Origin: Paraspadella gotoi | Taxonomy: Eukaryota; Animalia; Chaetognatha | NCBI GenBank assembly: GCA_051294375.1 | Contig: CM119271.1 | Coordinates: 14,204,770-14,268,769 of the forward strand | Reading direction: 5' to 3' | DNA length: 64,000 nt | Shown here: positions 21,201 through 24,200 of the stretch, in pieces | Layout: each line of letters opens with the position of its first letter | Numbering within the stretch: position 1 is the first letter of the stretch | Made by a program: the position numbers and the translations under genes | The notes under the pieces: generated by a model | The model's input: only the letters and a program-made list of their open reading frames with translations | Told to the model about the DNA's origin: nothing | Database searches by the model: none

Positions 21201-24200
21201 GATGGTGTCGTCCTTGAACAGCTTCCGGAAGGATTTCGACGACCTTCGACGCGAGTCTCGGCAGCGTTTGGACGCCTTGGAGCGGTGAGTTCTTTTCCCG
21301 CTAGGGGCGTAGTGGTTTTTAGCTCGTTTTTATAACGCCTCGCCTCCCTCTTTTTGTTTCTCCTTTTATTTCTTTCTTTCAAATTTTCGTTTTAATTGAA
21401 AATTTTTTTTGTGAATTTTCGTTTTTTTAGAAATAGCTTTTCCTCCGCCTCTTGGCAGGGGGCTTTTCGTGGCGAGGCGGACCGATATCAGAATTTTTAA
21501 TTCCTTTATGGAATATTAATTCTATATCGGTCCGCCTCGCCACGATCCCACCGTCCTCCCCATTTTTGTCACCGTTTTTTACGTGGCGTAGCGGGGCGTA
21601 GGGAAGGGGAGGGGAGAGAGGGAGGGGGGGGTTCGGAGTTTTTCGTTTCTTCTCTCGCGCTAATTTTTGTTTACCGCTTACGTTTTTTTACATGTGACGA
21701 TTCCATGTCGGTCCGGTTTCTCTCCACTACGCTTCACCGCTTTGACTCGTTTCGAATTCCTTCCATGCTGTTCTGACTCCAGTGGGCGGCCCCTCTCAGA
21801 TCGGGCGTCAGCCTCGGACCGTCGTACGGTCTCGCCTCCACCCAAGCGTCATCGGTCCCACACAGTGCCAGACCCGGATGCCCAGTATTCCTCCGATTCG
21901 GCGGAAGACGGAGAAGTTTCATCTTTGGACGAGGACGCCGGCGGCTTAGACGACTTCTTACCGGCCGCCCGTTCGGCGCCGGCCCCGTCTCAATGGGTCC
22001 CAACATGTGGGGACCCTCCGCTGCGTTGGAGACGACGACGCTCTCACGGCCAACTGGTCTTCGTTAACTCGTCAGGCGGCCAGCAGAGCCCGCCACTGGG
22101 TCGACGCGGCGTCTCCGCCCGAGTTCTTCGCTCCGACGCCGGATTCGTGCCTTTCCGCTCAGTTTGAGGCAGCGTTTTCCAAGGGAACGAACGCGGCTTC
22201 TCTTCGTTCTAATTCGCGCTCGATGCAGGATTACGGCGCGACCGCTCACGCCGTCCTCTCGGTTGCCGACGAGTTGCGCGAGATCAAGGAGGCTCTCCAC
22301 TCCGGATCGCCCAGGGAGGACGTCATCACCAGACTTGACGCCCTAGCCACTCCGCTTCGCGACGCCGCCCTCATTCAAGCGGCGTCTTTCAATCACTTGG
22401 TTGGCGAGATCCGGCGTCAGGTCCTCGTCACGGCGCCTCAGGATATTCGCGCCGCTCTTACTCGGGCTCCTCCTTCCACCTCCTCTTTTCGGCAATCAGG
22501 AGGCACAGGTGGCGTCGGCGCTCAATTCGACGCTGCTGCGAAACGTCGCCCGCGTCAAGCCAGCTGTCGACAAGCGCCCTCGATTCCGTTCCAAGCAGCC
22601 CTTCAAGCGCAAGTGGACGAAGAAGTCTGCTCCCCGCAAGAAGTCGGGAAACGGGAAAGGCCGGGACGCCCGTCCCGGCGAATGACTGGCAACCTCTCCT
22701 CCGCGGTCGCCGCCTCGTCCACCGCTCAGGTTTCAGGCCCTCTTCCGCCCACGGACTCGATTCTGGACACGGATCTTTCTTCTCCGGCGCTACTTCCGGA
22801 GTTGCCCGTGGAGGCCGACTTCGGCATTTTCGGCCGTTTTGGGCGACGCTTGTTGGGGAGTCGTCGCCTATCCTCGAAAACATCTCGGGTTTCCGTATCG
22901 CGGGGGCGAGGGAGATCCCAACTCGCCTTCCCCTCCCTTCAGACGAGACGCCATCCTTCGGAGACAGAGACGCTTTGATCGACGCGGAAATTGCGGCGGC
23001 AATAAAAAAGAACGCCATCGAGGAGGTCCCGGCGTCGCCGGGCTTCTACTCCAAAATCTTTCTCGTACCAAAAAAGGACGGAGGCTGGCGTCCGATTTTG
23101 AATCTAAAGAGGCTCAACTCGCGTTTTCTATCGCCGCCTTATTTTCAAATGGAAGGGGCCCCGGATGTCTGGAAGATGCTTCGACGAGGCGATTGGGGCG
23201 CCTCGATAGACCTTCGGGACGCGTACCTTCACCTCCCGATTCACAAGGATCATCGAAAGTTTTGCCGATTCGTTTGGAGGGGCCGCGTTTTCCAATACAG
23301 GGTCCTTCCATTCGGCCTGTCGACGGGTCCTTAGATCTTCACCAAGACGACGAGACCATTGGTTCAGTGGCTCCGTCAACAAGGGATACGATGCCTGTTC
23401 TACATAGACGACATCCTGATCTTGGGCGCTTCGGCGGAAGACTGTCGACGAGCCACTCAGAAAGCAGTTTGGCTGCTCAAGGAGGCGGGGTTCGTCATCC
23501 ATCTCCAGAAGTCGAGCCTGACCCCCTCTCAGCGTTTCGAATTCCTCGGCTTCGTTTGGGACAGTCTCTCCCACTCCATTGCGCTCCCGGAGACGAAGGC
23601 TACGACCCTCCGTTCTCCTCGCGGATGCTCTCCTGTCGACGACCTCACCACAAGCTCGTCAAGTTCTCCAGCTCCTCGGCCATTCGACGGCGGCATCGAT
23701 GGCGGTCCCGCTGTTGCGCTGCCGGTCGTCGAGGATTCAACGGGACGTCAACCGCGTCTACAAGTCGGAGAAGGACCTCGACCAACGGGTCTCGATCGGC
23801 CCCGCAGCGATGGAAGAGCTACGGTGGATCGCAGCTCTTTCTCCGGATCAGTGCTTCGCTCCGATCGACGATCTCCTGCCGGAGGACTGCACACTGGAGG
23901 TGACGACGGATGCCTCCTCTCAGGGTTGGGGATCCTTCATCAAGGCCTCCTGACGAGGGGGACCTGGTCGGATGCAGATGCCCCTCTCCATATCAATGTG
24001 AAGGAGTTCACGGTCCTGAGGATCTTCCTCCAACGCTTCGGGGCTTCTTTCCCCGGCACATCCATCCTATGGAAGACGGACAGCCTCGTCTCTCTCGTCT
24101 GCCTTCGCCGGGCTGCAGCAGGTCGCAAGTTCTCCACGAGGTGGTCAGGGAAACTCTTCTGCTAGCCTCTTCGTTGAGGATCCGCTTCTCAGGAGTCCAC

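Follow-up and report, generated by a model that had tools for sequence, protein, structure and literature searches.

A decayed DIRS1-like retrotransposon with a 5' ICR inside a predicted gag intron

Retroelements rely on a single transcript that serves as message and as template, and as a rule they lose their introns. In retroviruses the packaging signal follows the major splice donor; splicing removes it, and only unspliced RNA is propagated. Retroviral Gag and Pol are translated from this same unspliced RNA, and packaging is the step at which the signal acts. Papers cited below by PMC number are drawn on in excerpt. In BARE1 and copia, and in Ogre as cited in the same source, splicing separates translated from replicated RNA, and the genomic copy keeps the intron (PMC3735527). 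BARE1 and copia splice to obtain a Gag-only RNA from an open frame, and their sorting involves promoter choice, capping and the R region, not an intronic replication template (PMC3735527). Penelope-like elements, which have an unrelated RT and mode of integration, retain spliceosomal introns, and this retention has been ascribed to an antisense or unspliced template (PMC3846280). For DIRS-1 of Dictyostelium, the excerpts of PMC7192593 report that deletion of the ICR blocks retrotransposition and reverse transcription still occurs, that a marker intron is spliced out and absent from new copies, that the RT acts in trans, and that non-spliced cDNA arises when the marker intron lies near the 5' end.

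The element described here shares with DIRS1-like elements the inverted ends, the right extension, the two-part ICR overlapping at the junction, the four-repeat core, the ATT ends and its size of 5.36 kb (as given in the excerpts of PMC3266345 and PMC7192593). PMC3266345 places the ICRs of DIRS1-like elements at the 3' end, and in its Additional File 3, in the part available, 28 of 28 elements carry the ICR downstream of their recombinase motif. Our element differs from these in that its ICR lies at 0.18 of the element length, upstream of pol, and a predicted intron splits gag and holds the ICR. The strings 'intron' and 'splic' are absent from the main text of PMC3266345. Neither a 5' or intronic ICR nor natural DIRS introns were found in the literature searched, a body of text that stands apart from Repbase, Dfam, the papers of Goodwin and Poulter and supplements other than Additional File 3 of PMC3266345; the excerpts of PMC9210276, PMC3783388, PMC6681497, PMC5718144 and PMC13465315 also contained none. 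The element departs from the canonical DIRS1 layout in its 5' ICR and in the predicted split of gag, whereas its enzymes, ends, ICR structure and junction are DIRS1-like.

Architecture of the element and position of its ICR

The element occupies positions 20501–25860 (5,360 nt, or 5.36 kb; sense strand +) of the window, the whole 64-kb stretch of DNA that was analysed. Its RT, recombinase, inverted ends, ICR and ATT junction identify it as a decayed DIRS1-like retrotransposon, and its genes follow the usual DIRS1 hallmark order of gag, RT/RH with a putative methyltransferase-like region, and recombinase. The left terminus with its ITR (20501–20718) starts with AATT and is 99–100% complementary to 25612–25825, and the right ITR with the right extension (25612–25860) ends with AATT. 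The ITRs are non-identical and inverted (20508–20718 versus 25612–25825), with the extension reaching 25860; this inverted rather than split direct arrangement rules out an Ngaro or PAT-like identity. AATT is present at both borders, and excision of the element in silico leaves a single AATT in a 52-nt host intron, an empty site that is a reconstruction by element removal. A target-site duplication is absent and the ends are of the NTT type, in line with DIRS1-like elements.

The interrupted intron (20460–25867, minus strand, about 52 nt without the element) belongs to a multi-PDZ gene, in which the element is inserted antisense. The gene spans about 15290–34450 on the minus strand and contains many short GT-AG introns, of which this is one of the shortest. 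By our own reading its product is an MPDZ/Patj-like multi-PDZ protein. GTGAGT marks drops in GC content in this gene too, for example at 29456 and 19014 on the minus strand. Other repeats in the window comprise a 31-nt repeat containing ATTTGCAT that occurs six times (2819, 7881, 17098, 28749, 40213 and 60118) and is probably the remnant of a small dispersed element, and two MITE-like inverted-repeat elements, at 62912–63599 (148-nt arms, 95%) and at 5695–5896 (with a nested 36/53-nt palindrome).

The pol region (22682–24830) encodes RT, RNase H and a putative methyltransferase-like region and is broken by a stop and frameshifts. PF00078 matches the RT in two pieces (E 2e-7 and 7e-10), and the methyltransferase-like region after RNase H gives a weak match to PF05869 (Dam, E 0.3). 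The tyrosine recombinase ORF (24677–25696; PF00589, E 1e-8) is open, runs into the right ITR and has 77 homologues by protein search. The LFPP and PFW motifs are present as in the available part of Additional File 3 of PMC3266345. In addition to the damage in pol, gag exon 2 is spread across three frames, as seen by comparison with the intact relative L002. The window copy is dead, and its own RNA may behave unlike that of the family.

The ICR has two parts. The left ICR (21460–21495) is the reverse complement of the element's first 36 nt (100% complementary to 20501–20536), and the right ICR (21492–21545, 54 nt) is the reverse complement of the last 57 nt (25804–25860) save for one 3-nt gap. 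The two halves overlap at AATT, i.e. at the circle junction. A 22-nt core is found four times, at both ends and in both ICR halves, compared with none in 100 shuffles, and has no further match elsewhere in the window. The ICR starts 960 nt from the left end, 175 nt past a predicted splice donor at 21285, and ends 237 nt short of the CAG of a predicted acceptor at 21782. This bears out the first-pass annotation, which had placed the ICR inside a 498-nt segment about 1 kb from the left end. No ICR was found between the recombinase and the right ITR, and the ICR is not 3' of the recombinase as in the canonical DIRS1 layout; because it lies at 960 of 5360 nt and its core is unmatched elsewhere, the element is not assigned to that layout. 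The earlier statement that the ICR normally lies near the 3' end, and the departure of this element from published DIRS elements, agree with the 28 elements of Additional File 3 cited above and with a distant full-length control element, L004, whose ICR is at 0.92 of its length. L005 and L006 contain only partial 3' ICR-like repeats, and L007 is too decayed to be used for ICR placement. L004–L007 are DIRS-like retrotransposons on contigs of four bacterial MAGs and are most likely eukaryotic host DNA in bacterial bins; the full-length L004, with its 3' ICR, lies amid GT microsatellites.

Around the ICR hairpin a clamp is predicted (21336–21635), in which a pyrimidine tract at about 21336–21365 pairs with a purine/G tract at about 21600–21635; the clamp is a folding prediction whose z-score of −9 includes the ICR hairpin itself. 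A tract of G runs just 3' of the ICR (21593–21633) could form a G-quadruplex or be the clamp partner of 21336–21365. Further upstream in the intron, part of the ICR core recurs; in the window this recurrence is at chance level (301 of 1000 shuffles) and was discounted, whereas in L003 it is not (5 of 1000).

The predicted gag intron

Predicted gag exon 1 (20824–21284) encodes an SR/proline-rich stretch with a helix at its end. Its ORF, from the ATG at 20824, ends in ...DALER-stop, and the stop codon TGA overlaps CG/GTGAGT at 21285, as had been noted from the sequence at first reading and was confirmed on re-checking. GTGAGT (21285–21290) is the predicted splice donor, in phase 2, and has the same context in a second family, L003. 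Since GTRAGT occurs once on the sense strand of the element and the shuffle mean is 0.7, a single hexamer is expected by chance, and the signal is the position of GTGAGT, not its presence.

The segment that follows (21285–21782) was first described as a T-rich stretch of 498 nt; its coordinates hold, and T makes up 33–50% of each 100-nt bin, compared with 13–29% in neighbouring coding bins. Its GC content is 0.45, versus 0.64 on either side, and it is closed, each frame holding 4–7 stops. A 143-nt run free of AG precedes its end, CTGACTCCAG; the predicted acceptor (21763–21782) is pyrimidine-rich, ends in CAG and has no listed variant at the CAG. An internal acceptor-like site, a T run followed by AG, lies upstream of the ICR at 21422–21430, and splicing there would keep the ICR and lead to a stop after 22 codons. 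The join 21284/21783 is in frame and reads ...DALER-GRPLSDR..., in agreement with the proposal that splicing restores the frame, but in the window copy this frame stops after 281 aa, because the gag core sits in two further frames. For unspliced RNA, a truncated Gag of 154 aa had been proposed; the stop at the TGA of the donor is there, but the length of 154 aa is not firm because family contigs have one extra base within 21064–21150.

Composition, stops, splice sites and contig variation together indicate that the segment is very probably a spliceosomal intron. The GT donor and pyrimidine-YAG acceptor resemble those of the host, as expected of a U2 intron, and the splice sites are kept within the family as the interior drifts, the donor also being present in L003. 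A predicted stem of 9–10 bp (21306–21315 with 21725–21734) would bring the splice sites together, and both of its arms are kept in loose ends of divergent contigs. Possible short 5' UTR introns were noted at 20700–20758 of the window and at 313–401 of L003 in reverse, where donor-like GTGACT and GTAAGT are followed by T-rich AG sites. A protein search with the end of exon 1 returned no match, and no longer protein holding the exon-1 helix, which is weak evidence.

Variation among copies was followed in family contigs from six runs of three studies, which contain many variant copies and whose depth is not a copy number. For 21150–21900, four contig sets from 3 studies were compared, one of which may be the source of the window itself. 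Of the 18 substitution sites listed, 12 are inside the segment and all spare the donor hexamer as well as the CAG, and the 12 indels listed of 20 are all inside the segment too, so the donor and acceptor conservation for which the first-pass annotation had suggested a check is seen here. Contigs of runs X9 and X3 with 6–9 other letters span each splice site unchanged. None of the 3 joints listed for this region equals 21284/21783; contigs show presence, not absence. Run X9 was treated as DNA, as host introns and flanks are covered as evenly as exons. By hand, substitutions near the end of exon 1 were found to be synonymous or conservative in the exon-1 frame, and one divergent loose end (21189–21218) alters five exon-1 codons, four of them synonymously in the frame of the donor.

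Predicted gag exon 2 (21783–22685) is recognised by the family HMM (E 7e-23 and 9e-6) and has no ATG before 22223 in the window copy. Homology to the gag of L002 starts about 45 codons before the first Met that the two share; because conserved coding sequence precedes this Met, exon 2 would need a start further upstream. A protein search with the window gag piece gave no match. Of 68 Gag homologues matched, the 31 with a length of 260 aa or more were used, after exclusion of one gag-pol chimera, and in these the called start lies 1–219 aa before the first conserved Trp. Nine of 19 homologues with long N-termini begin with F/L/C/Y/I-rich sequence, compared with 0 of 19 control stretches (p 0.002); the starts are automatic gene calls, and the other 10 of 19 carry no such signal. 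N-termini of this kind would be typical of translated pyrimidine tracts. A count of Met in 29 of 31 homologues was discarded, as it reflects aligned N-termini.

Further splicing was considered for the downstream genes. A candidate acceptor, TTTTAG (24670–24675), is located where recombinase homology begins and is in phase with the donor at 21285. The recombinase frame begins at a conserved EDFR/EDYR motif, with TTTTAG/G at 24670–24676 of the window and at 1056–1062 of L001, and L002 has an ATG at this spot instead (~3345–3355), so acceptor and start codon may substitute for one another at this position. An arrangement of one donor with three acceptors is weakened for pol: an acceptor at 22736 is in phase, but pol of L002 has its own ATG, 4 nt past the gag stop. 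In the window an ATG overlaps the gag stop (22682–22685) and is a possible stop-restart start for pol. The sequence evidence on whether pol is reached by splicing or from its own ATG is mixed.

Two related families

One metagenome scan reduced 172 pattern matches to 3 loci. When L003, a metagenome contig, is read in reverse, a flank is followed by the left ITR, a 97-aa ORF, T-rich DNA and the ICR. The ORF (ATG at 440) ends in a helix and R-CG/GTGAGT with the same in-frame TGA, and all four cluster members stop at the same residue. The ICR of L003 follows the donor by 126 nt and is 828 nt away from the left end. GTRAGT occurs four times in this part of L003, two of them in a terminal motif, so here too the donor signal is its position and not its presence. 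The terminal sequences of L003 and the window differ, and between their ICRs the alignment is confined to the 34-nt junction core. The repetition of a donor on the stop codon with a downstream ICR in a second, unalignable family lends the predicted intron independent support. From the right ICR the L003 contig passes into the right ITR and the last 21 residues of the recombinase; we read it as a chimeric contig, made by an assembly jump through the shared repeat. The jump at the ICR leaves the acceptor and exon 2 out of view. The link of L003 to the recombinase is these 21 residues, and L003 is not among the rows of the recombinase tree. L003 has no 3' ICR, since only about 40 nt lie between the recombinase stop and the right ITR. 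An atlas look-up with its exon 1 gave no match.

L002 is an intact relative, the pol of which is 42–52% identical to that of the window. Its gag exon is homologous to that of the window (E 2e-8), with the first Met at residue 128 of 305, and is preceded by a CC/GTGAGT donor at 132 and a T-run AG acceptor at 502. This intron is in phase 1 and contains no ICR-like hairpin, its best stems being 7–9 bp. Positions 1–502 show a branch-point-like CTAAC (41–45), an acceptor at 76, a 55-nt RS-rich mini-exon, the donor at 132 and the acceptor at 502, and the join gives an open frame of 323 aa. The gag of L002 seems to have at least two introns, 132–502 being probably the second and the earlier one cut by the contig end. 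Either the ICR of L002 would lie in that earlier, cut-off intron, or introns of this clade would persist without an ICR. In a quick tree of 60 of the 77 recombinase hits (at least 200 aligned residues) and 5 DNA-derived rows, the window, L001 and L002 fall in a clade of 24 rows with a support of 99, apart from L005 and L006. Scans of viral contigs gave no relative of the element, and an atlas look-up with the L002 gag homologue gave a generic lead only.

Splicing as a possible sorter of RNA

The best explanation of this arrangement, and one that we regard as reasonably likely, is that splicing would sort the RNA into an mRNA that lacks the ICR and a genomic RNA that carries it. With exon 1 and the start-less gag exon 2 joined by the host spliceosome, full-length Gag would be made, with pol behind it. 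The spliced RNA could be reverse-transcribed but would lack the template to restore the ends or close the circle, and would not be integrated. On unspliced RNA, translation would stop at the donor's own TGA and the ICR would be retained; copying of this RNA would take place in trans, the recombinase would insert the product at ATT, and intron-less copies would be filtered out in each cycle. A 5' ICR is compatible with the fold-back model, since the model needs the ICR on the cDNA and not at a set place. The proposal of an mRNA/genome switch, made in the first-pass annotation, keeps its footing in that both of its premises are seen in DIRS-1 (in the excerpts of PMC7192593) and the predicted intron is supported; it loses exclusiveness, since L002 and the non-spliced cDNA from 5' marker introns allow other routes. 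The accompanying claim that the intron could not be lost fares similarly: the ICR is essential in DIRS-1, but L002 keeps a gag intron with no recognisable ICR.

Among the family contigs, 5 of the 15 joints listed, of 33 in all, link the ICR end to the right ITR, and several distinct ones, from 21526–21546 to 25769–25772, tie it to the last 90 nt of the element. They may be jumps in the assembly graph, or else miniature non-autonomous derivatives in which the ICR adjoins the right end. Short derivatives that keep the ICR and drop all else are predicted from copying in trans.

A stricter version, which we put forward tentatively, is that a whole DIRS clade moved its ICR into a gag intron, with the spliceosome as a strict sorter and replication in trans only. 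Every mRNA would then lose the ICR, with Gag-Pol made via 21783 and the recombinase via the in-phase acceptor ending at 24675, and only the untranslatable unspliced RNA would be the genome. This would be the retroviral logic of splice donor and packaging signal turned round and acting at end repair.

Rather unlikely, in our view, is the alternative that the intron is real but that the clade would retain introns in any case, since capture for copying is limited to unspliced (or antisense) RNA, and that the ICR lies there because this is the non-coding space left free in a compact element whose recombinase enters the right ITR. L002 fits this with an intron lacking a visible ICR and seemingly two gag introns. 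So does the non-spliced cDNA of DIRS-1 with 5'-placed marker introns, from which 5' introns may be kept by other means (PMC7192593, in excerpt), as do the antisense templates proposed for intron retention in Penelope-like elements (PMC3846280, in excerpt). There is also no room 3' of the recombinase, which enters the right ITR in the window and leaves about 40 nt in L003. However, new DIRS-1 insertions do arise from spliced sense RNA, so the founder element does not follow a rule of default retention (PMC7192593, in excerpt); the ICR of L002 may lie in its first, cut-off intron; and an intronic ICR makes spliced RNA non-replicable even if its placement began by chance. For sorting by splicing, the intron of L002 means that retention is possible without an ICR in the intron concerned, and together with the non-spliced cDNA from 5' marker introns (PMC7192593, in excerpt) it makes the ICR probably the enforcing filter rather than the only cause of retention.

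Less probable still is that the segment is a spacer, untranslated and holding the ICR, that separates a short ORF from gag, and that gag starts after it by reinitiation or at a non-ATG codon. The single GTRAGT expected by chance, the shared position of the gag core's first Met in the window and L002, and the weak evidence that no longer protein with the exon-1 helix was found would agree with this. It leaves unaccounted for CG/GTGAGT on a stop codon in two unalignable families, the match in phase between donor and acceptor, the 143-nt AG-free run, the conserved coding sequence upstream of the gag-core Met, and the textbook donor and acceptor in L002. An ICR within a cassette exon, where splicing to 21430 and from a weak donor past the ICR would yield a genomic RNA that is spliced and yet retains the ICR, is very improbable: 21430 has the longest T run among the candidate acceptors (14 T of 20) and GTAGGG past the ICR resembles host-gene donors, but copying would delete 21285–21430, through which the contigs run unbroken with no such joint listed, no counterpart of this acceptor immediately precedes the ICR of L003, and the 21430 site is inside the predicted clamp.

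Sorting by splicing would resemble BARE1, copia and Ogre in separating translated from replicated RNA; the unspliced RNA of the window element would be the closed one, in contrast to the open frame from which BARE1 and copia splice (PMC3735527, in excerpt). It would resemble retroviruses in that splicing takes away a cis signal on which replication depends, and differ in that Gag would need splicing and in that the signal would act after reverse transcription, at end repair and circle closure. If true, an intron with an essential end-repair template would solve both the message/template problem and the problem of intron loss, and would be a self-preserving intron. The 5' ICR also shows that an ICR need not adjoin the right ITR, and this constrains the still largely theoretical model of DIRS end repair. 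An intronic ICR predicts obligatory trans-mobilisation, from which numerous short parasitic derivatives would follow, and DIRS gag genes that have been annotated as plain ORFs may be exons that lack a start.
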